Notes under the pieces: generated by a model
Database searches by the model: none
Seen by the model: the letters and a program-made list of their open reading frames with translations, nothing else
What the model was told of the DNA's origin: nothing
Virus genome (UHGV): UHGV-0042415
Reading direction: 5' to 3' (one strand)
Source: a virus
DNA: 35,864 nucleotides
Shown here: piece by piece, positions 1,057 through 34,435 of the stretch
Position numbering within the stretch: position 1 is the stretch's first letter
How the letters are laid out: each line of letters opens with the position of its first letter
Translations under genes and position numbers: made by a program

Positions 1057-1443
1057 TTAAGACTTAATCCATCCCATCATCAACATCAGAGATACCGCCG
1101 TATTAGAAACAGACTGATTTTGATATACTTTTCTATTCTTTTTTTTATCTGCGAAAGGCTCAAAGGCCATATCAAGTTGTTTAGTCAATTCCTCTGCCAA
1201 CAATTTGAGGTCATCCATATTTTTAACTTGTGTAGACAATTCTGGTGTAAGTCTTCCTTGATTATAAAGTACAGCTATAAAGTCAGCCGAGGTAGCCAAT
1301 TTGTTTTTATAAGATGCCTTTTGCCACTCAAGGGCGTTTGCCTTATGTAATGTTCCACCTTCATACCATTCAGAGGCATACCCATGAGATGCAAAAACAA
1401 ACAAGATATAAAAAAGGACTAATTTTAAATAATTACGCTGCAT
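1057..1443 (-). CDS. Exported protein of unknown function (cargo)
   Basis: 128 aa; N-terminal signal-peptide-like MQRNYLKLVLFYILFVFASHGYA; visibly AT-rich; 5 bp from int. Confidence 0.65.
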   Translation of the reverse strand: MQRNYLKLVLFYILFVFASHGYASEWYEGGTLHKANALEWQKASYKNKLATSADFIAVLYNQGRLTPELSTQVKNMDDLKLLAEELTKQLDMAFEPFADKKKNRKVYQNQSVSNTAVSLMLMMGWIKS

Positions 1444-1474
1444 ATCATATTTCCTTGCATGTTATTTAACGTAT

Positions 1475-2122
1475 TTACACAAAATAAATTAAAAATGTAA
1501 TCACCATACCCAAAATGAGTCCAACAATGAACACAATCAAAAATTCTTTAGTATATTCTGTTAATAGTTCACTAATGCAGTGTCTATTTTTAATATTGCC
1601 ATTGCTCTGAGATATATTTTTATTAGTCTGCTGATCTAACCACGACAATGCAGATTGCAACTGAGAACGAGTAAGATCGTTTAAACGGCCTGTACCGAAA
1701 TTGATATGGCAATATCGAAGAAGTTTTTGTCTAATTTCATTACTTTCACTGTTGCGAAGAAGGAGGCTTACAAGTAATTTACAGGCGTCATGATCCTTGT
1801 GTCGGTCAAGCATCGCATTGAGAAAGCTAATTGCGGTTGGATACTGATTCACCGTCATCTTATCGACACTATCAACACCGATTTCAGCATGAAGTTTACG
1901 CCAAACAACAAACGATTCTTCCTTGCTGGCATCAACAATCTTGTCAACCAACAACTTCAGTTGATGTCGCTGAGCCTTAACTAATGGGCGCTCATCAGGC
2001 CTACCAGAAGGGATTGCAATATTGACTGTATGCCGATCATCATATCGCTCTATCTGAATATTCTTTTCGTGGTAATCACGCCCAGCAACGCGATTGTCTG
2101 AACCGTTTGAGTTGACCGCCAT
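1475..2122 (-). CDS. Tail-anchored membrane protein of unknown function (cargo)
   Basis: 215 aa; single C-terminal hydrophobic segment EFLIVFIVGLILGMVITFLIYFV, remainder soluble; AT-rich; starts 18 bp after the repressor stop on the same strand. Confidence 0.7.
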   Translation of the reverse strand: MAVNSNGSDNRVAGRDYHEKNIQIERYDDRHTVNIAIPSGRPDERPLVKAQRHQLKLLVDKIVDASKEESFVVWRKLHAEIGVDSVDKMTVNQYPTAISFLNAMLDRHKDHDACKLLVSLLLRNSESNEIRQKLLRYCHINFGTGRLNDLTRSQLQSALSWLDQQTNKNISQSNGNIKNRHCISELLTEYTKEFLIVFIVGLILGMVITFLIYFV

Positions 2123-2140: not shown

Positions 2141-2554
2141 CTAACCCTTAGTTTCGTTATAGTCACGACCAGCAATACGATGGCCCTTGCCAGAAGCTCT
2201 TATTGTACCTGGAGCCAAACTACCAGCGGTCAAGGCTGCCAAAGCCGCCGCCTTAACAGCCAAAGGTGCAGAGCGATATATTTTAATTAGCTCAATCTCA
2301 TCTTCAGTGGCATTAGGGATGCCATGTGCACGACTACCAGAAAGTATGTAATAGACATCTACTCCGCAGCGCCTTCCCAAGAGATTCAGCATAGCTGCAT
2401 CCGGTGTAGTCACCCCTCTTTCATACTTCCCCCAAGTCTTTGTAGAAACTTCAAAAATAGACGCCATATCATCCTGAGTCATGCCAGTTTTCTCTCGTTC
2501 CTCCCGTAATCGACGTCCAATAATGACACTTAATTCCTCTTTTTCTGTTGACAT
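2141..2554 (-). CDS. HTH (XRE/Cro-C1 type) immunity repressor
   Basis: 137 aa; N-terminal HTH region LSVIIGRRLREEREKTGMTQDDMASIFEVSTKTWGKYERG; divergent from the early operon; same orientation as int as in P2 C-int. Confidence 0.8.
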   Translation of the reverse strand: MSTEKEELSVIIGRRLREEREKTGMTQDDMASIFEVSTKTWGKYERGVTTPDAAMLNLLGRRCGVDVYYILSGSRAHGIPNATEDEIELIKIYRSAPLAVKAAALAALTAGSLAPGTIRASGKGHRIAGRDYNETKG

Positions 2555-2613
2555 AGGAAGTTTTGTTCCCTAAAGTAATTTCACGTGCAATTAGATGATC
2601 ACAATGTACCACT

Positions 2614-2820
2614 ATGAATCAAGTTAGTCACGACACCAAGTCACGCATTCCGCGTAATACCGCCACAGGTCCAAGACTGGCACTTAGGCTGTCCCTCGAG
2701 GAGCGAGCCATCATTGATGAAATGGCCGCCAAAGAACAACGCTCATCCTCTAACATGGCGCGCATGATCTTCCTTCGAGGCCTGGAGCTGACCCAGAAAG
2801 AACAAAACAAATCTTCCTGA
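2614..2820 (+). CDS. Putative ribbon-helix-helix (Arc/CopG-like) small regulator, Cro-like position
   Basis: 68 aa; RLALRLSLEERAIIDEMAAKEQRSSSNMARMIFLRGLE resembles an RHH beta-strand plus helices; first rightward ORF opposite the repressor; no clear Shine-Dalgarno, so start uncertain. Confidence 0.5.
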   Translation: MNQVSHDTKSRIPRNTATGPRLALRLSLEERAIIDEMAAKEQRSSSNMARMIFLRGLELTQKEQNKSS

Positions 2821-2836
2821 TCAGGAGGTTAGTGGG

Positions 2837-3040
2837 ATGTCAGGTATAACCATCAATATCAATGTGAATGCCCCCTATGTATCCCTGCAGAAATATGCAG
2901 AGATAACAGGTATCCCTCTTAATACATGCAAAAAGATGTTGGCTGACGGTCGAATTATTATCCGACCAAAACGCGCCAAAATGGAAAAGCCAGAAGTAAA
3001 CCTTGTGGCAATGCTGAAAGACGCTATCGCTAACAGTTAA
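2837..3040 (+). CDS. Cox/Apl-like small HTH DNA-binding protein (putative excisionase or early regulator)
   Basis: 67 aa; strong SD (caggagg) upstream; HTH-like YVSLQKYAEITGIPLNTCKKMLADGRI resembles P2 Cox/AlpA-type proteins. Confidence 0.6.
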   Translation: MSGITININVNAPYVSLQKYAEITGIPLNTCKKMLADGRIIIRPKRAKMEKPEVNLVAMLKDAIANS

Positions 3041-4361: not shown

Positions 4362-4603
4362 CCATTCTGGACTATATCGCCGCCAATCCGGGGTGTAGCG
4401 GTGGAGAAATCGCCGCAGCACTGAATACCCCAACCACAGCCATTAATGCGGAGTTACGCCGACTCTGGCGCAGCGGTTCAGTCATAAGAAAAGAGCGCAA
4501 AACAGGCGGTCGCTTTTCTTACCAGATAAACCCGATGCCGTTCGGGTGCGGCAATCCACTTACCAACATGTTTAACCAGCTACTGAAGGAGGCCAGAGCA
4601 TGA
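4358..4603 (+). CDS. Small putative winged-helix DNA-binding protein
   Basis: 81 aa; ILDYIAANPGCSGGEIAAALNTPTTAINAELRRL resembles a winged-HTH; overlapping start and stop with neighbours. Confidence 0.55.
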   Translation: MTILDYIAANPGCSGGEIAAALNTPTTAINAELRRLWRSGSVIRKERKTGGRFSYQINPMPFGCGNPLTNMFNQLLKEARA

Positions 4604-4899
4604 GCGCCATCAACCACCAGGAATTACGCGAACTGGCGATTGACCTGCAACGAATGGCAACGCATCAAAAATTACTGGCGTTTCGCGCAATGCTCTCGCC
4701 GTCTGCCGTGCTGGCACTGCTGGATGAGCTGGAGCACGCCAGAACCATGTCTCCAGCCATTCGCCTGGCGCTCCATCATGAAATCGCTGATTTCTGCGCT
4801 CCACTGGGTTCGCCTGGTGAACCAGAAACGCCGGAAGCAATGCAACGAGAGCTACTGCAACGCATCGACAAGGTTTTTGATTTCTTCCTTAACCAGTAA
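4600..4899 (+). CDS. Hypothetical early protein (Ead/Ea22-like features)
   Basis: 99 aa; helical, LLDELE-type motif; SD ggagg upstream. Confidence 0.55.
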   Translation: MSAINHQELRELAIDLQRMATHQKLLAFRAMLSPSAVLALLDELEHARTMSPAIRLALHHEIADFCAPLGSPGEPETPEAMQRELLQRIDKVFDFFLNQ

Positions 4900-4910
4900 A
4901 GGACCGCGAT

Positions 4911-5114
4911 ATGAACAAAAAGACCTGGTTTCGCGCATACATGTGGGCGCTGGTATGCGTCCTCGTTTCTCTCATTCTGTATGCAGGACTACTCCCCCGA
5001 ATGATTTCATCAGACAGCTCCTTCTTGGTATTGCTGGGCATTTTCATTGCCATGCTGTACCCGGCAGGCGTTGTTCGCCTTTTCAGTAAGTACATCAAGG
5101 AAATCAAACAATGA
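4911..5114 (+). CDS. Small two-TM membrane protein, likely partner of the downstream SPFH protein
   Basis: 67 aa; two hydrophobic segments (WALVCVLVSLILYAGLL, FLVLLGIFIAMLYPAGVV); stop overlaps the SPFH gene start (ATGA). Confidence 0.6.
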   Translation: MNKKTWFRAYMWALVCVLVSLILYAGLLPRMISSDSSFLVLLGIFIAMLYPAGVVRLFSKYIKEIKQ

Positions 5115-5941
5115 AGAAACTCAAACTCTTTCAGATTATCCCGCTTTTTGCCGCCATCCTGCTGGTTGGTTGCGATCGCGTTGAGCCAGGTAATGTGGGC
5201 ATCAAAGTCAACAAACTGGGCGACGACAAAGGCGTCGGTGAAGTGGTTGGCGTTGGCCGCTACTGGACAGGCTGGAATACAGAGGTTTACATCTTCCCGA
5301 CCTTCAAACAAATGAAGACCTACGATGAGCCGTTCAGCTTTCAGATGAGTGACGGCACAACCATCGGCTATCACATCGGTGTGGCCTACAAGGTTGATCC
5401 ATCCAAAGTTACTACAGTGTTTCAGACCTACCGCAAAGGCGTGGACGACATTACCGACACTGACCTGCGCCAGAAGATCGCCGATGCACTCAACCGACTG
5501 GCCAGCAAAATGACCACCGATAAATTCATCGACGGTGGCAAGTCTGAACTGCTGGATTCAGCACTTAAAGATATTCAGGAAGAGATGACCCCCATCGGTA
5601 TTCAGGTCATGAGCCTCTCTTATGTCGGTAAACCGGAATATCCGCCAACCGTTATCGACAGCATTAACGCCAAAGTCACGGCAAACCAGAAAACCCTGCA
5701 ACGCGAACAGGAAGTCAAGCAACGCGAAGCAGAAGCCAACATGTTGCGCGCAGAAGCTGCCGGACAGGCTGATGCCATTCGCACAAAAGCCCAGGCTGAA
5801 GCCGACGCCATTCGTTTACGCGGTGAAGCTCTGCGCCAGAATCCCGGCGTTATGGAGCTGGAAGCAATCAACAAATGGAACGGCACGCTGCCGCAATACA
5901 TGACCAGCAATACCGCTGTTCCGTTTGTTCCGGTGAAGTAA
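5111..5941 (+). CDS. SPFH/band-7 (prohibitin/HflC-like) domain lipoprotein
   Basis: 276 aa; lipoprotein signal with lipobox LLVGC; SPFH-like core followed by an A/E/Q-rich coiled-coil tail (QREQEVKQREAEANMLRAEAAGQADAIRTKAQAEADAIRLRGEAL). Confidence 0.7.
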   Translation: MKKLKLFQIIPLFAAILLVGCDRVEPGNVGIKVNKLGDDKGVGEVVGVGRYWTGWNTEVYIFPTFKQMKTYDEPFSFQMSDGTTIGYHIGVAYKVDPSKVTTVFQTYRKGVDDITDTDLRQKIADALNRLASKMTTDKFIDGGKSELLDSALKDIQEEMTPIGIQVMSLSYVGKPEYPPTVIDSINAKVTANQKTLQREQEVKQREAEANMLRAEAAGQADAIRTKAQAEADAIRLRGEALRQNPGVMELEAINKWNGTLPQYMTSNTAVPFVPVK

Positions 5942-5947
5942 TTAAAC

Positions 5948-5991
5948 CCGGCCAGTGAAAATCGCTGGCCGGAGCAGTATCAGGATTTTTT
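5948..5991 (+). terminator. Hairpin plus T-run downstream of the SPFH gene (putative terminator)
   Basis: ccggccag-tgaaaatcg-ctggccgg perfect 8 bp stem, T6 run 14 nt downstream. Confidence 0.4.
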
Positions 5992-6308
5992 AGTATGCCG
6001 TTCTCACAAAAAAACCGCTTGCCATGCCGCAATCAGTCAGGTTACATTTCCGCTGCACCTCATAAAACGGGTGCCGGGATTGGAACCCCGCAGACTAACA
6101 GAGCGCACAACCGCGCCAGCGGTTTTTTTGTGCGTACCGTATCGCCACGTCTTTTTCGCGTCAAAATTATGGTGGGGCGTACAGGGCCAGCATCAGCTGG
6201 GCCGGGTCCTCTGTTAGCCGGTAGTTCCAACCCTGTACGTCTCACCACCCCGAGCTTGGAACCTCTGGATGGTGAGTTTTCAAAACTGACTAACAGAGAG
6301 GCCACACC

Positions 6309-6536
6309 ATGGCAAACCGCAAACAGCGCGCATACGCTGCGCGTCGTCACATCCAGACTGAAATCGACCGCAGACTTTCCCGCGCATTCCGCGTCGCTAA
6401 AATCATGCACATCAACATGCTGCATGAGCGTAGCTGCGAACTTTCAAACCTCTACTCATCCGCTGTTTTCAGCTATCTGGCGGATGATCTGCGCGAGCTT
6501 CAACAGCTCATCCAGCAGCAAAACAAACTCCATTAA
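6309..6536 (+). CDS. Hypothetical small basic protein
   Basis: 75 aa; SD gagagg upstream; preferred over the overlapping low-complexity 205 aa ORF. Confidence 0.5.
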   Translation: MANRKQRAYAARRHIQTEIDRRLSRAFRVAKIMHINMLHERSCELSNLYSSAVFSYLADDLRELQQLIQQQNKLH

Positions 6537-6608
6537 TTCCTGTTCCGGGCCTTTCCTGCACCTTGCGGCGGGAGGCCTTCGCACATCTGTAACAAGAGGA
6601 TTGCCGCA

Positions 6609-6974
6609 ATGATTCTCGCCAACGACTTTCTTGAATACCTGCTCAACACAGAACGTGATCTTGCCGCTCGCGTGCGTGATCGTTATGACATGTACCTGAA
6701 ATCCCTGCCTGTACCGCAACTCGCTGACGGAAAAATTGTTATTGATGGTCGCTACATGATTGACAGCCACGAGGGAAATTACAGGCTTTACCGCATTGAA
6801 GGTGGCACCCCGTCCGTTATTGGCATTTACCAGCGCCCATCCTCTGCAATCGTCGATGTGATTGCCGACAGCATCCGCATCACACATCGCCATGCCGACA
6901 CAGAAGACACCGTGCTGGAAATTCAGCGGCTGGCTGCCGTCTGCCGCGACACCCTGAATGGCATGACGAAGTAA
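6609..6974 (+). CDS. Hypothetical protein immediately upstream of gpA
   Basis: 121 aa; SD aagagga upstream. Confidence 0.6.
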   Translation: MILANDFLEYLLNTERDLAARVRDRYDMYLKSLPVPQLADGKIVIDGRYMIDSHEGNYRLYRIEGGTPSVIGIYQRPSSAIVDVIADSIRITHRHADTEDTVLEIQRLAAVCRDTLNGMTK

Positions 6975-6980
6975 ATCACT

Positions 6981-9779
6981 ATGACGGCAGAGTACATCAG
7001 GGACTGGCAACAGCCGCGCCACGCAGTGGGACGTGAAGGAACGGGGATCCCCGTTCCTGAATCCGCGCTTTCCTCCTGGCTGGATGCCTACCGGGCAGAG
7101 AACGAGCGCCGCCAGGAAATGGCTGATGCGGCGTTCTCCGCCACGCCGCTGGGCAACCTGATTAATAAAAGCCTGGATGCACAGGAAAAACAGGACAAAA
7201 CCATCACACTGGCAGGAGACGCCAGAAAACAGGTACGCGGTGCGGTGGATGAAGCCATGGCCTCGCTGCGCCTGCTGCCGTCCTATCTGCGCGATCCGCT
7301 TATTCGCCACCTCTCCTTCCTGCGCAAAAAACAGGAAGCCGATCGCCGGAAAGGCAAAAAGAGCTGGCAGGCTGAACGCTACGCGCGCGGAACCCTGCGC
7401 AAAATATTCGAACGTCTGGACCGCACCGACCACCGCTGGCTGACACCGGGTTATCGCTCCCTTGCCGGACGCGAACGCCTGGATGATTTGCTTTACCTGC
7501 CGCAGCTCAACAAGCACCAGATACAGACGCTGGCCACCATGACGGCGGCGATGTTCAGCAGCACCTTCGAAAAACTCTGCGATGGCTTTGGCGCGACTGA
7601 TGGCGAGCTGACCATGGAGGTAACGCTGAAGGCGTATCAGATGCTGGCCCGCATGGCGTTACACCTGCACGCCATGCCTCCGCATTATGACGCACTGACA
7701 ACAGACAAAGACCGGAGGAACGAACCGGACACGGAGTTGCTGCCGGGCGCAATCCTTCGCCTGACCTGTGCGGAATGGTGGAAACGCAAACTGTGGCTGT
7801 TACGTTGCGAGTGGCGGGAAGAACAACTCCGCGCCGCCTGTCTGGTTTCCAGAAAAACATCGCCCTATCTGAGCCAGGACGCGTTAAGCGAGTTTCGCGC
7901 ACAGCGCGAGAAAACACGCGATTTCCTGAAAAGTTTCATGCTGGAAAACGAAGACGGGTTCACGATTGATCTCGAGACGGTGTATTACGCGGGAGTAAGT
8001 AATCCGGTTCATCGTAAGGCAGAAATGATGGCCACCATGAAGGGGCTGGAACTTCTGGCCGAAGCCCGTGGCGACAAAGCGGTGTTTCTGACTGTCACCT
8101 GCCCGTCAAAATACCACGCCACAACAGAGAACGGTCATCCGAATCCCAAATGGAACGGGGCCACCATGCGCGACTCCAGCGATTACCTGGTTAACACGTT
8201 TTTTGCGGCGGTCCGCAAGAAACTGAACCGCGACGGCCTGCGCTGGTATGGCATCCGCACGGTGGAGCCTCACCATGACGGCACCGTGCACTGGCATATG
8301 ATGGTCTTTGCTCATCCGGAAGAAATCGACACCATTGTGTCCCACACCCGCGATATTGCCATTCAGGAAGATCGTCACGAGCTGGGTGATGATATTACCC
8401 CACGCTTTAAGGCGGAGTACGTCGACGGCTCAAAAGGCACACCGACCAGCTACATCGCCACCTACATCGGGAAAAACCTGGACAGCCGTGCCGTGGATGG
8501 CATCGACCCGAAAACGGGCAAGCCACGCGTTGACCACGAAACCGGAAAATCAATGGCCGAGAGCGTGGAACGCGCCATCGGCTGGGCGCGCCTTCACCGG
8601 GTCCGCCAGTTCCAGTTCTTTGGTATCCCCTCCCGTCAGGTGTGGCGTGAACTGCGCCGCCTTGCCAGCCAGATGGCTCGCAACCCGGAAGGACCGCAAC
8701 GGCTGAAGGATGACGCAATGGACGCGGTTCTTGCTTCCGCTGATGCCGGATGTTTTGCCACCTACATAGAGAAACAGGGCGGCGTACTTGTTCCACGCAA
8801 GGACTACCTGATTCGCACCGCCTACGACCTCGCAGATGAGCTGAACGATTACGGTGAACAGAGCGTACAGATTTACGGGATCTGGTCACCGCTCATCGGG
8901 GAGTCTTCCCGCGTATGCACGCATCCGGACAACTGGAAGCTGGTAAGACGCAAACCGGAAGCGGAAGACAGCGCCCGCGAAAATGGTTTTGACCTTCAGG
9001 GCGGCCCTGCCGCCCCTTGGACTCGTGGCAATAACTGTCCCCGTGTACAGGAAACGGACAACAACGGGACAGAACAGCCGGAAGAACGGCCAGCACCGTG
9101 GCCGCAGCTTCCTGACGGCGTTGACGTGAATGAATGGATGCGCTCACTGAAACGGCACGAACGCCGGGCGCTGATGCGTTCGCTGCGTGACAAACAGGCA
9201 AAAAACAGCAGTGATGAAATGCAGAACTGGACACAGAGCCGCAAACAGCCACAGCCTTTGCCTGATAACCACGAGTTACTCGCTAAAGAATGGCGGGAGT
9301 CTGCTGAATCTCTCGGCCTGCATATCGGTGAACAGCAGGTGCAGCACCTGTTACGGGGCGGCAGTCTGTACGTTGACGGCAGCATCATTGCACCGCAGGG
9401 ATTTGAAATTGTACGCAAACCGGATACCCGCCAGGACAGCCGAATCACGCAGCTCTGGCAACGCCTGAGCCGTAATCACGGCGTAAGCAGCACGGAGATC
9501 CGCCATAACCCGGTCGCCAGCTATCTGGAACAGCTGGGGGCATCAGACCCTGAAGCCGCCGCACGCCTGGCATCCACACTTCAGCAGGACCAGAACACCA
9601 TGAAAACACCCGTTACCGTGCTTTCTGACATGCTGCGCGCCATCCGCGACGCAGAGCACGCACAGAGAATCAGTGAAACCACTGAACGCGCCCGCCGCAA
9701 AGCAGACCTGCTGCGGGGTGGCCTGACCAGTGGAAACAAAAAAACAGACAGAAACGGGACTCACAAATCCCGTAAATGA
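6981..9779 (+). CDS. A: Rolling-circle replication initiator (P2 gpA-like endonuclease)
   Basis: 932 aa; HUH-type motif VHWHMMVF and paired catalytic tyrosines YIATYIGK as in P2 A-family initiators; long Q/R/E-rich C-terminal extension. Confidence 0.88.
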   Translation: MTAEYIRDWQQPRHAVGREGTGIPVPESALSSWLDAYRAENERRQEMADAAFSATPLGNLINKSLDAQEKQDKTITLAGDARKQVRGAVDEAMASLRLLPSYLRDPLIRHLSFLRKKQEADRRKGKKSWQAERYARGTLRKIFERLDRTDHRWLTPGYRSLAGRERLDDLLYLPQLNKHQIQTLATMTAAMFSSTFEKLCDGFGATDGELTMEVTLKAYQMLARMALHLHAMPPHYDALTTDKDRRNEPDTELLPGAILRLTCAEWWKRKLWLLRCEWREEQLRAACLVSRKTSPYLSQDALSEFRAQREKTRDFLKSFMLENEDGFTIDLETVYYAGVSNPVHRKAEMMATMKGLELLAEARGDKAVFLTVTCPSKYHATTENGHPNPKWNGATMRDSSDYLVNTFFAAVRKKLNRDGLRWYGIRTVEPHHDGTVHWHMMVFAHPEEIDTIVSHTRDIAIQEDRHELGDDITPRFKAEYVDGSKGTPTSYIATYIGKNLDSRAVDGIDPKTGKPRVDHETGKSMAESVERAIGWARLHRVRQFQFFGIPSRQVWRELRRLASQMARNPEGPQRLKDDAMDAVLASADAGCFATYIEKQGGVLVPRKDYLIRTAYDLADELNDYGEQSVQIYGIWSPLIGESSRVCTHPDNWKLVRRKPEAEDSARENGFDLQGGPAAPWTRGNNCPRVQETDNNGTEQPEERPAPWPQLPDGVDVNEWMRSLKRHERRALMRSLRDKQAKNSSDEMQNWTQSRKQPQPLPDNHELLAKEWRESAESLGLHIGEQQVQHLLRGGSLYVDGSIIAPQGFEIVRKPDTRQDSRITQLWQRLSRNHGVSSTEIRHNPVASYLEQLGASDPEAAARLASTLQQDQNTMKTPVTVLSDMLRAIRDAEHAQRISETTERARRKADLLRGGLTSGNKKTDRNGTHKSRK

Positions 9780-9880: not shown

Positions 9881-10840
9881 ATGAAAATTTGTATCGACGA
9901 CGGCTCCACCAACATCAAGCTGGCATGGACTGAGAACGGCGAACGCCGCAACGCCATCAGCCCGAACAGCTTCAAGTCGGAATGGTCTGCGCCGTTCGGT
10001 GGCACGCAGCCCGCGAACTACATGCTTGATGGCGTGCGCTATGGTTTTGATCCGGTCAGCGATCGCTTTGTCCAGACGACCGACACGCAATACCAGTACA
10101 GCGATGTGAATATAATTGCCATTCATCACGCGCTGGTCAAATCAGGCATCACACCACAGGAAGTGGATGTGGTTGTCACCCTGCCACTGAGCGAGTATTT
10201 CGATACAAACGCACAGCCGGACATGGCCAACATCAACCGCAAAAAAGCGAACGTCATGCGCCCGGTGGAGTACCAGAACGGCGAAGCATTCACTATCCGT
10301 AACGTACGGGTTATGCCTGAATCCATTCCGGCTGGCTTTAAGGCACTGGCTGACATGAGTCCGTTTGAATCCCTGCTGATTGTGGATTTGGGCGGAACCA
10401 CGCTGGATGTGGCAAAGGTTCAGGGGCAACTGGCAGGTATCAGCCAGGTGTTTTGCGATCCACACGTGGGCGTTTCTCTGATGGCCGATGCCGTACTGTC
10501 GGTGATGGCCACTAACGGTATGCGCACCAGTCACCACATCGCCAATACCATTATCGAACATCGCCATGATGAAGCCTGGCTGCGCCAGCACATCCACAAT
10601 GACGCGCATTACGCCAGCCTGATGGCGGTAATTCGTGAAAAGGAAGAAACACTGAAACAACGCGTGATCCGCGCGCTGGCGGGTTTTTCGGGTTACGGGC
10701 GGGTGATGGTTGTCGGTGGAGGGGCGGAGATTGTGGCACCCGCTATCCGCGAAGCCTGCGGAGTTAATGCGACTTTCATCGCGGACGGGGTGCCACAGTT
10801 TGCTCTGGTTAATGGGCTGTACGCAATGGACAAGGAGTAA
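9881..10840 (+). CDS. parM: ParM/StbA-like actin-fold segregation ATPase
   Basis: 319 aa; N-terminus MKICIDDGSTNIKLAW closely matches plasmid R1 ParM (MLVFIDDGSTNIKLQW); phosphate-2 motif LIVDLGGTTLDVA; same length as ParM. Confidence 0.85.
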   Translation: MKICIDDGSTNIKLAWTENGERRNAISPNSFKSEWSAPFGGTQPANYMLDGVRYGFDPVSDRFVQTTDTQYQYSDVNIIAIHHALVKSGITPQEVDVVVTLPLSEYFDTNAQPDMANINRKKANVMRPVEYQNGEAFTIRNVRVMPESIPAGFKALADMSPFESLLIVDLGGTTLDVAKVQGQLAGISQVFCDPHVGVSLMADAVLSVMATNGMRTSHHIANTIIEHRHDEAWLRQHIHNDAHYASLMAVIREKEETLKQRVIRALAGFSGYGRVMVVGGGAEIVAPAIREACGVNATFIADGVPQFALVNGLYAMDKE

Positions 10841-32283: not shown

Positions 32284-32440
32284 AGCTTCAGCCCCTTGTA
32301 TCCGTTAAATGATTAGGCAACAATCATCACCCACCACGCGCGTAATCTCACCCCTGCGCCATTCTCCCGCCACGGCGACAACAAAAAGCAGTAACCCCCT
32401 CCGCACGCACATGCGACCATGCCGCACAGGGAGGGAACAG

Positions 32441-33550
32441 ATGACCGACACCACCATGCAATTGCTCAGTCAGGGCACAGACCCTGTAAAAATGCCGGAT
32501 TTTGATATTCTCGCGGAGGGTAAAACGCTGTCAGGCGTGGCAGAGCGCCTGATGAGCCTGTCACTGACCGACAACCGTGGATTTGAGGCGGACCAGCTCA
32601 CCATCACGCTGGATGATGCGGATGGTCAGTTGCAGCTACCGCCACGGGGCGCGCGCCTGACGGTTCTCATTGGCTGGAAAGGAGAACCGCTGACAGAAAA
32701 AGGCACTTACATTGTTGATGAAATCGCTCACGAAGGACCGCCGGACAGGCTGACTGTTTCAGCCAGAAGCGCAGATTTTCGGGATGAATTTAACGTTAAA
32801 CGTGAGGTGTCCTGGCATGATGTGACCGTTGAGCGTGTGGTATCCGCCATCGCTCATCGGTACGGTCTGAAACCACAAATCAGCGAAATACTGATGGATA
32901 TTGAAATCGACCACGCCGACCAGACCGAAGAAAGCGACATGTCCTTCCTTACGCGCATGGCGGAAATGCTGGGCGCAATCACCACGGTAAAAAGCGGTAA
33001 TCTGTTATTCATCATGCCTGGCGGTGGCGTGAACGCACAGGGCCAGCCGTTGCCCTCATTCGCCATCACACGCAGCAGTGGCGATCGCCATCAGTTCCGC
33101 ATTGCTGACCGCGAAGCGTATACGGGGGTACGCGCTTACTGGCTTGATCTTAATTACGGGAAAAAGAAAAAAGTCAGCGTGAAACGCCGCAAACCGCCAA
33201 AACCCAAAAAGGAGAAAAGCAGCAGCCGTGAAGGTGATTATATGGAAGGCGCGGAAGGCAATGTGTTTGTGTTACGCAAGACTTATCAGAACGAGCAGGC
33301 AGCAAGACGCGCAGCGGCGGCGAAGTGGCAGCAGCTACAACGCGGAGCCGCATCATTCTCCATCACGCTGGCACGTGGACGAGCAGAACTCTACCCCGAA
33401 ATGCATGGCACGGTAACAGGATTTAAAAGCGAGATTGATAATCAGGACTGGATTATTGCAAAAGCCGAGCACACCATTGATAACAGTGGTTTTACCACAC
33501 AGCTTGAGCTTGAAGCAAAAATCCCGGAATGGATAGCAGAAACAGAGTGA
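32441..33550 (+). CDS. D: Tail protein D (P2 gpD-like)
   Basis: Start at the ATG at 32441 with SD gggaggg; LTDNRGFEADQLTITLDDADGQ...LPPRG...VDEI.H.GPPD...RSADF matches P2 gpD; lysine-rich internal linker. Confidence 0.9.
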   Translation: MTDTTMQLLSQGTDPVKMPDFDILAEGKTLSGVAERLMSLSLTDNRGFEADQLTITLDDADGQLQLPPRGARLTVLIGWKGEPLTEKGTYIVDEIAHEGPPDRLTVSARSADFRDEFNVKREVSWHDVTVERVVSAIAHRYGLKPQISEILMDIEIDHADQTEESDMSFLTRMAEMLGAITTVKSGNLLFIMPGGGVNAQGQPLPSFAITRSSGDRHQFRIADREAYTGVRAYWLDLNYGKKKKVSVKRRKPPKPKKEKSSSREGDYMEGAEGNVFVLRKTYQNEQAARRAAAAKWQQLQRGAASFSITLARGRAELYPEMHGTVTGFKSEIDNQDWIIAKAEHTIDNSGFTTQLELEAKIPEWIAETE

Positions 33551-33676: not shown

Positions 33677-34435
33677 ATGTTCAGTTTATTTTCGTTAACT
33701 GCCGGAGCAAATGTGCGCTGGCATGATTTACCTGGTAAAGGTATTCCTGTTGTTTTTATTCATGGGCTTGGCTGTTCCTCTTCTTATGAATATCCACGGG
33801 TTGTTGCAGATCCTGCATTTGGTGGACAACGAGCGATATTGATAGATCTCCCTGGATATGGATTCAGTGATAAGCCTAAAGGATTCGATTACAGCATATC
33901 CCATCAAGCTAAAGTTGTTATTGAAGTAGTAGAAACCTTAAATCTCTCACAGTTCCATATTTATGGTCACAGTATGGGGGGAAGTATTGCGATTGAAGTG
34001 GCCAGACAACTACATGAGAGAACAAGAAAGCTTGTGGTTTCTGAGCCTAATTTTCACTCTGGTGGAGGTACCTATAGCCGTAAGATAATAGAGAAACCAG
34101 AAGCAGAGTTTATTTCGCATATATATAATGAATTACTGGAGTGTGAAACATCCCCATGGAAAGGTGAACTCCAGAATGCAGCCCCATGGGCAATATGGCG
34201 AGGAGCCAAAAGTCTGGTTGATGGAACCACTCCATCATGGAGAGATATATTCCTTAATCTGCCCTGTTCACGTACACTAATTTTTGGCGAACAATCATTG
34301 CCAGACAATGATTTCCAGCAAATAAAAGAATCTGGAATATCTGTTGCAATAGTGCCAAACGCTGGACACTCCATGTCATGGGAAAATCCATCAGCACTGG
34401 CCTCAATTTTACATACAGAATTTTATAGAAAGTAA
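33677..34435 (+). CDS. Alpha/beta-hydrolase fold protein (putative esterase/lipase), AT-rich moron
   Basis: 252 aa; HG oxyanion motif (VVFIHGLG), nucleophile elbow GHSMGG, C-terminal His in AGHSMSW; markedly AT-rich with AT-rich flanks. Confidence 0.75.
   Translation: MFSLFSLTAGANVRWHDLPGKGIPVVFIHGLGCSSSYEYPRVVADPAFGGQRAILIDLPGYGFSDKPKGFDYSISHQAKVVIEVVETLNLSQFHIYGHSMGGSIAIEVARQLHERTRKLVVSEPNFHSGGGTYSRKIIEKPEAEFISHIYNELLECETSPWKGELQNAAPWAIWRGAKSLVDGTTPSWRDIFLNLPCSRTLIFGEQSLPDNDFQQIKESGISVAIVPNAGHSMSWENPSALASILHTEFYRK

Follow-up and report, generated by a model that had tools for sequence, protein, structure and literature searches.

When the 35,864-nucleotide virus genome UHGV-0042415 (the window, i.e. 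the whole stretch of DNA analysed) was aligned with its P2-like relatives, two overlapping genes at 4911-5941 were found to form an optional accessory cassette, which resembles a moron in being present in some and absent from other phages that are otherwise collinear. The genes encode an SPFH/Band-7 lipoprotein and, directly 5' of it, a small membrane protein with two transmembrane (TM) helices. The reading that we tentatively favour, and to which we would give somewhat less than an even chance, is that of a horizontally mobile early-operon cassette specifying an SPFH scaffold with a lipid anchor, of the same type as prohibitin, HflKC and erlin, and a two-helix partner dedicated to it; together these would insulate a patch of the host inner membrane. 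The gene pair itself has already been catalogued as gp11 and gp12 of Escherichia phage P88 and as PHROGs 1130 and 200, and is a further representative of an accessory family that is widespread in phages. What is added here are the cassette boundaries, the recognition that the partner belongs to a conserved family, distinct from NfeD, which accompanies the SPFH gene, and the existence of chromosomal counterparts. The features of the cassette are as follows.

4900-6004, plus strand: accessory cassette of two genes and a 3' stem-loop, an insertion of about 1.1 kb relative to close relatives (alignment to relatives)
4900-4903, plus strand: Shine-Dalgarno sequence AGGA of the small gene, 7 nt 5' of its ATG (direct sequence reading)
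4911-5114, plus strand: gene of the small membrane protein, 67 amino acids (aa), phrog_1130 family (open reading frame (ORF), hydropathy, phrog_1130 match at E=1.3e-22)
5097-5103, plus strand: Shine-Dalgarno sequence AAGGAAA of the SPFH gene, within the 3' end of the small gene (direct sequence reading)
5111-5114, plus strand: ATGA overlap between the stop of the small gene (TGA, 5112-5114) and the start of the SPFH gene (ATG, 5111-5113) (sequence)
5111-5941, plus strand: gene of the SPFH/Band-7 lipoprotein, 276 aa (ORF, PF01145 at E=5.7e-31, phrog_200 at E=3.6e-112, AlphaFold2, Foldseek)
5948-5972, plus strand: perfect 11-bp stem-loop just 3' of the SPFH stop (RNA folding, -22.4 kcal/mol, z=-3.8 against shuffled sequences)

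The original prediction, made from the sequence alone, had described a 67-aa two-TM protein whose stop overlaps the start of a 276-aa lipoprotein with a lipobox, an SPFH-like core and a long A/E/Q-rich coiled coil, placed in the early operon and foreign to the canonical P2 gene set. These features were recovered from the ORF coordinates, the hydropathy scan and the searches reported below, the coiled coil as a predicted long helix. Both ORFs are considered real genes rather than chance ORFs because of their PHROG matches and because the same arrangement recurs in phages of several bacterial classes.

In the Xuanwuvirus phages P884B11 and vB_EcoM-569R5, homology extends to window position 4899, which is the stop of an Ea22-like gene, and restarts at 6005, the two ends being about 18 bp apart in these phages. 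At the cassette site, Citrobacter phage Shae_phiSM has an unrelated gene annotated as 'DNA binding protein', and the cox-A interval of P2 contains neither gene of the pair. The pair is not a canonical P2 gene set, as P884B11, vB_EcoM-569R5 and P2 all lack it.

The closest known counterpart of this locus is that of Escherichia phage P88 (NC_026014; Peduoviridae, Xuanwuvirus), to which 4911-5941 is 97.9 % identical at the DNA level. The encoded proteins share 98.5 % and 99.3 % identity with P88 gp11 and gp12, respectively, and occupy the same position in the genome. P88 gp11 is annotated as 'membrane protein' and gp12 as 'lipoprotein' (RefSeq) or 'putative SPFH domain protein' (GenBank). No difference of substance was observed within the pair, whereas the immunity region of the window is unlike that of P88; no published function for gp11 or gp12 was found in the literature searched. 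The E. coli M8 chromosome matches the region 4600-6320 at 100 % identity, and the full P2-type configuration is carried by 145 of 5,426 complete E. coli genomes.

The pair lies in a rightward early operon. A repressor gene (2141-2554, minus strand) diverges from a promoter-like, Pe-like site (TTGACA-17-TAAAGT, 2548-2576), and the genes that follow are, in order, Arc-like, Cox-like, DUF4761, DUF4754, winged-helix and Ead/Ea22-like, then the pair, with replication gene A further downstream (6981-9779). A consensus scan, which gives a weak negative, called no promoter-like site between 3772 and 6019 and hence none near the cassette start at 4900. Because of this and of the Pe-like promoter upstream, the two genes would most simply be early lytic genes that are silent in the lysogen. 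The ATGA overlap suggests that they are translationally coupled, and overlaps or gaps of a few bases between partner and SPFH gene recur among relatives.

As regards a promoter and terminator of its own, as expected of a moron (an autonomous accessory cassette), consensus scans found no promoter-like site at the 5' end of the cassette and a strong 3' hairpin without an adjacent U-run. A U6 run (5986-5991) lies 13 nt beyond the hairpin, so that the structure is not a canonical intrinsic terminator; it was not called in a consensus terminator scan either. It may instead serve as the 3' end or as an mRNA-stabilising element of the cassette.

The 276-aa protein matches the Pfam Band_7/SPFH profile far above threshold (108.4 bits, cutoff 23.6), its residues 23-209 covering profile positions 2-176 of 176, and phrog_200 carries the label 'lipoprotein'. 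In its N-terminus, MKKLKLFQIIPLFAAILLVGC-D, the n-region MKKLK precedes a hydrophobic core and the lipobox L-V-G-C, after whose Cys21 comes Asp22 at +2. The predicted signal peptide covers residues 1-20, the lipobox pattern [LVI][ASTVI][GAS]C is satisfied, and the lipobox Cys is nearly invariant among 11 diverse phage homologues. Asp at +2 is the classical inner-membrane retention signal of E. coli lipoproteins (the +2 rule). Of the 134 enterobacterial subfamily proteins with a lipobox, 103 have Asp and 23 have Tyr at +2; Seydel and colleagues reportedly found in 1999 that aromatic residues at this position can likewise retain a lipoprotein.

These features bear on the idea that the protein is a lysogenic-conversion lipoprotein that acts at the surface on an animal host, as is reported for the HflK/C-like protein PM0222 of a Pasteurella multocida prophage. 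PM0222 is an SPFH superfamily protein of a prophage island and a TLR1/2 agonist on outer-membrane vesicles (PMC9872710), and any triacylated lipoprotein can be a TLR2 ligand. However, Asp at +2 speaks against targeting to the outer membrane or to vesicles, the early-operon position speaks against expression in the lysogen, and the family is common among virulent environmental phages. We consider this explanation very improbable.

In the AlphaFold2 model of the monomer (mean predicted local distance difference test score (pLDDT) 78; predicted template modelling score 0.58), an SPFH alpha/beta core is accompanied by a continuous 65-residue helix (179-243) in an A/E/Q/R-rich stretch. The input alignment was shallow (31 sequences, 65-92 % identity), and a homologue search with a diverse profile reached only 62 % at its low end. 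A conserved C-terminal motif, I-N-K-W-N-G-x-L-P (253-261), was also observed, of which K255, W256, G258 and P261 (K-W-x-G-x-x-P) are invariant in 11/11 diverse phage homologues.

When the model was compared with the PDB using Foldseek, solely SPFH cage-forming proteins were matched at a probability of 1.00. The top matches (E ~1e-13) were HflC/HflK (7vhq), prohibitin (8rrh) and erlin, followed by stomatin, QmcA-YbbJ, flotillin and major vault protein. Against PDB sequences, a profile of the 11 diverse phage homologues matched PHB2 (7.7e-10), HflK (2.5e-8), HflC (6e-8) and QmcA (3.5e-7), with PHB1 and erlin also matched, as against only 0.007 for Pyrococcus stomatin. By profile and predicted fold, the family is thus placed nearest the prohibitin/HflKC/erlin branch.

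Orthology with HflK or HflC was rejected, as the protein scored 25.7, 23.5, 20.7 and 18.8 bits against the NCBIfam equivalog models TIGR01933, TIGR01932, NF008181 and NF008259 (cutoffs 134.4, 159.4, 660 and 427). E. coli HflK/HflC are nevertheless its top structural and sequence neighbours, with which it shares the SPFH fold, a long helix and a predicted periplasm-facing orientation. It differs from them in being encoded by one SPFH gene rather than by two paralogues and in having a predicted lipid anchor instead of an N-terminal TM helix, and identity in the structural alignments is 17-18 %. Prohibitins PHB1/PHB2 and erlin-1/2 are of similar length (~270-300 aa) and have the same architecture of SPFH domain, helix and C-terminal cap; in contrast to the phage protein, they form eukaryotic, TM-anchored hetero-oligomers, and identity is ~14-19 %.

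The 67-aa partner was characterized further. A hydropathy scan places its TM segments at residues 10-28 (TM1) and 37-55 (TM2), connected by a short, predicted periplasmic loop (P29-R-M-I-S-S-D-S-S) and followed by a basic C-terminal tail; K/R residues at both termini point to an N-in/C-in hairpin. When 13 partners from diverse phages (65-84 aa, each the hairpin alone) were aligned, Pro29 at the end of TM1 was invariant, and Ser33 and Gly43 (in TM2) were nearly so. The loop after the invariant Pro follows the consensus x-[LM]-[IV]-S-[AS]-x-[DS]-[ST], with a Pro-x-L-[IV]-S core motif. Eleven of the 13 match phrog_1130, which is labelled 'membrane protein' in the category 'moron, auxiliary metabolic gene and host takeover'. 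The expectation that the SPFH protein would have a small membrane partner is thus supported by the family match, the alignment and the recurrent adjacency of the two genes. The breadth of the partner family is hard to gauge, since the protein is too short and hydrophobic: its profile gave 15 significant clusters among 1.84 billion representatives.

The original prediction had also pointed to NfeD/YqiJ families for this partner. Neither NfeD (PF01957) nor any other Pfam family was matched significantly by any of the 13 diverse partners, NfeD being absent even at E up to 1, and the proteins consist of a two-helix hairpin only; an NfeD/YqiJ-type protein was therefore rejected. The cassette resembles the SPFH-NfeD operons (E. 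coli QmcA-YbbJ and YqiK-YqiJ, Pyrococcus stomatin-STOPP) in that a gene for a small membrane protein is adjacent to and co-oriented with the SPFH gene, and QmcA is a structural match to the phage protein (8z5g, E=1.4e-8). In contrast to these operons, the phage partner has neither an NfeD/OB-fold domain nor a protease domain, and the phage SPFH protein is a predicted periplasmic lipoprotein, whereas QmcA faces the cytoplasm and is anchored by a TM segment.

A class II holin or pinholin was also considered for the partner, as the architecture is similar (small, two TM helices, N-in/C-in, basic tail). The identification was rejected, since no holin Pfam family is matched and the gene lies in the early operon, distant from the late genes. 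This similarity is nonetheless one basis for viewing the pair as an envelope stabiliser or lysis-timing accessory, in which an SPFH cage buffers membrane stress or restrains the holin-like protein and thereby keeps the membrane energised until programmed lysis. Bacterial SPFH proteins are reported to be linked to stress tolerance. In the Kayvirus group (Staphylococcus phage K), mbpV and mbpS sit between the endolysin and transglycosylase genes; MbpV is said to resemble holins, and it has been speculated that the two proteins help a lytic enzyme to be exported through the Sec pathway (PMC7150955). A tblastn search identified MbpS as a homologue of the SPFH protein of the window (~25 % identity), and in Kayvirus too a gene for a small membrane protein lies directly 5' of the SPFH gene. 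The Kayvirus system differs, however, in its Gram-positive host, in the TM anchor of MbpS (no lipobox), in MbpV, which has 102 aa, one TM helix and no loop motif, and in its location in the lysis region. As the window has its pair in the early operon and at a distance from the late lysis genes, we regard a role in envelope stabilisation or lysis timing as improbable.

SPFH homologues were found by tblastn in 765 phage records. Among these are Stx2/phiP27 lambdoid phages, P1-like phage-plasmids, N4-like phages of Klebsiella, Erwinia and Enterobacter, and Vequintavirinae, as well as temperate phages of Pseudomonas and Burkholderia, phiCbK-like phages of Caulobacter and the Kayvirus group of Staphylococcus. 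When viral contigs were searched with the SPFH protein, and then with a diverse alignment, solely near-identical E. coli prophages were returned. Sequence diversity was thus taken from the tblastn search of the phage collection and from a species-level genome scan.

Twelve diverse phage loci were fetched (L082-L092 and phiP27), and the upstream ORFs were translated for 11 of them (L082-L092). In 9 of these 11, a 65-84-aa two-TM protein is encoded just 5' of the SPFH gene, mostly overlapping its start; the partner ORF annotated in phi1026b has 102 aa. A partner directly 5' of the SPFH gene was observed in Klebsiella, Erwinia, Salmonella, Pseudomonas, Burkholderia and Ruegeria phages, in P1-like phage-plasmids and in Stx/phiP27 phages. 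Strictly virulent carriers of the pair are the N4-like Klebsiella/Erwinia phages, the Vequintavirinae and the Ruegeria phage. The upstream protein of phiCbK-like phages has three TM helices, and the phiEa104 locus has no membrane partner. In the Vequintavirinae Erwinia phage Hena1 (L083, 2341-2514) and Salmonella phage SalP219 (L084, 2320-2484), the partner gene is separated from the SPFH gene by a 54-57-aa soluble ORF (MLLNF/LKA...), which is conserved in both phages.

The partner encoded in phiP27-type and P1-type loci is a 78-aa homologue, unannotated in several records, e.g. phiP27 (L257), a P1 variant (L091) and the RCS47 records, for which tblastn listed no gene under the match. The product name 'putative serine protease' persists for the SPFH protein in some records and looks like a legacy misnomer. 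In Stx/phiP27/P1-type loci an A7 homopolymer lies within the 20-nt overlap of the two genes (L091 2940-2966, MH445380). With one base fewer in this run, the fusion represented by P0001 (347 aa, 8 member sequences) is obtained, in which the partner and the SPFH lipoprotein are joined in frame. P0001 reflects either an error in sequencing or a natural fusion that is prone to slippage; its predicted topology is compatible, an N-in/C-in hairpin being followed by the signal peptide.

The species-level scan, with one genome per species, yielded 80 loci. A hidden Markov model built from the 13-partner alignment, to which four of the scanned loci had contributed sequences, matched the upstream ORF in 8 of 9 loci with an SPFH identity of at least 40 % and in 6 of 9 loci at 33-40 %. 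Some of the loci are prophages, e.g. Pseudomonas L183, which has an S24 repressor on one side and an integrase as a further neighbour; others are not. A non-prophage pair lies directly upstream of gyrB in five genomes of Sphingomonadaceae (four Sphingomonas, one Stakelama) and adjoins a BlaR1-type M56 peptidase gene in three Dyella species. These non-prophage chromosomal pairs argue that the target of the module is generic in the Gram-negative envelope rather than phage-specific.

This distribution bears on the proposal, made with the original prediction, that the pair tunes lysis/lysogeny through FtsH. The SPFH protein would mimic or perturb HflK/C, alter the action of FtsH on CII/CIII-type regulators and thereby set the lysogenisation frequency. 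The nearest characterized relatives, HflK/C and the prohibitins, do cage FtsH-type proteases, the predicted periplasmic orientation is that of HflK/C, and the gene is early, like lambda cIII; the analogy to HflKC and lambda CII has already been voiced for the SPFH gene of a Pseudomonas satellite prophage (PMC4936722). However, the pair occurs in the strictly virulent phages named above, with distant SPFH homologues in Kayvirus and phiCbK-like phages, and it has core chromosomal versions. The HflK/HflC equivalog cutoffs are failed, and the pair is dispensable among close relatives that share the immunity and early genes. A tuner of this kind is accordingly improbable, and because of the virulent phages and the core chromosomal loci a role specific to lysogeny is unlikely as the general function.

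A superinfection-exclusion module, in which the partner and the periplasmic scaffold block DNA entry by a secondary phage, would suit virulent and temperate phages alike. The pair consists of early envelope proteins, it forms a variable cassette at a cargo site, and the PHROG category of the partner agrees. T4 Imm is a small inner-membrane protein with two TM helices. The likeness to T4 Imm/Sp, which are early non-essential phage envelope proteins, is a functional analogy only, with no relation in sequence or fold expected. In the Vi01-like phage PhiSH19 the SPFH gene adjoins an annotated superinfection exclusion gene (PMC3220722). In PADLOC-DB 2.0, on the other hand, the SPFH protein had no match and the partner only a 14-bit match (E=0.0078) over 21 residues, so that a known anti-phage defence system was rejected for both proteins. 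No experimental report of exclusion was found in the literature, homologues occur in chromosomal housekeeping contexts, and the pair lies in a repressed early operon without a detected promoter of its own, so that the lysogen would go unprotected. We therefore rate exclusion as unlikely.

In the insulating-scaffold reading that we favour, both proteins would be co-produced from the early transcript during lytic growth and not in the repressed lysogen. The lipoprotein would be exported, lipidated at Cys21 and held on the periplasmic face of the inner membrane through Asp at +2. Its long helix and conserved C-terminus would then mediate assembly into a closed ring or cage, as in every structurally solved full-length SPFH protein. 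The hairpin partner would reside within the enclosed membrane patch and touch the cage via its conserved periplasmic loop, and the outcome would be that a host inner-membrane patch and an enclosed protein are insulated during infection. The prime candidate for the enclosed protein is FtsH, as the closest characterized relatives all cage proteases of its type. If FtsH is enclosed, a general role at the time of infection would be expected and not a lysogeny switch.

Several points weigh against this scheme. Some relatives have E, S, N or T at +2, and Arg at +3, which is present here, may weaken the retention by Asp at +2. The lipoprotein has no TM helix of its own, in contrast to HflK/C. The AlphaFold2 model is of a monomer only, and its C-terminus (258-276) has a pLDDT below 50, although disorder of the C-terminal motif in a monomer would be expected of a segment that folds only on assembly. 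The association with the partner fades below 33 % SPFH identity (8 of 62 loci, mostly Bacteroidales, Caulobacteraceae and Acidobacteriota), and the Shigella locus L176 has an SPFH gene without a partner. The promoter scan was a simple consensus match, with which expression in the lysogen remains compatible, and the candidacy of FtsH is drawn from analogy.

Other features of the window were also noted. Directly 3' of the cassette, Rfam models matched an isrK Hfq-binding small RNA (6055-6129, plus strand; 72 bits, gathering threshold 50) and a C4 antisense RNA (6165-6252, plus strand; 78 bits, gathering threshold 45). A promoter-like site (6019-6048), a hairpin with a T-run (6109-6124) and a 75-aa ORF of the 'Derepression protein family' (6309-6536, plus strand; PF25738) are found in the same region. 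Taken together, 6019-6536 resembles an antirepressor module under RNA control, of the P1/P7 immI type or the Gifsy-1 isrK type, in a P2-like early operon. A 205-aa ORF (5995-6612, plus strand), which is called 'transcriptional regulator' in relatives (e.g. P884B11 gp51), overlaps the isrK and C4 RNA genes, as does the counterpart of the 62-aa P88 gp13 (about 6060-6248, minus strand). Both are probably annotation artefacts.

Between the integrase and the repressor, two genes at 1057-2122 (minus strand) encode proteins of 128 aa (phrog_23065) and 215 aa (phrog_5825) without PADLOC or Pfam matches; in P88 the C repressor is found directly at this position, and the segment is a possible cargo or defence slot. 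The immunity region (2141-3040), which is unlike that of P88, contains a 137-aa HTH_31-type repressor (minus strand), an Arc-like repressor (2614-2820, plus strand) and a Cox-like excisionase/repressor (2837-3040, plus strand). Just after gene A, 9881-10840 (plus strand) encodes a full-length ParM actin-like segregation protein (StbA_N and ParM C-terminal domain, E=3.7e-82). The gene that follows is annotated as a partition protein in P88, and plasmid-type partition is unusual for an integrating P2-like prophage. A 252-aa ORF at 33677-34435 (plus strand) has a weak esterase/lipase match (phrog_789, E=1.8e-19) and adjoins the tail gene at 32309-33550; it may have a cargo or receptor-modifying function.

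For twenty years, genome papers have recorded SPFH genes in phages, among them those of T4-like phages, which were reported without a function (PMC1524935, 2006), and their role is still called unclear (PMC13239085, 2026). No functional study was found when the literature was searched for phage SPFH with exclusion, anti-phage, abortive infection and phage-encoded. A broader proposal, for which the chances are rather low, is that the pair represents a distinct SPFH system shared by phages and some bacteria. It would be a prohibitin-like, lipid-anchored cage facing the periplasm, with a two-helix partner replacing NfeD, which phages use early in infection to trap or protect a specific machine of the host inner membrane (FtsH, or a component of DNA entry or of secretion). 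If this is true, phages would possess a membrane 'cage' effector directed at a defined target in the host.

The locus offers a tractable E. coli model, in which the 1.1-kb cassette is dispensable, the P2-like prophage that carries it is inducible, and isogenic-like natural relatives lack it. As the SPFH gene travels with a conserved and often unannotated partner, the two genes should be treated as a unit. The enclosed protein, once identified, would reveal what a virus gains from an SPFH membrane compartment, and it could inform the study of the chromosomal homologues.

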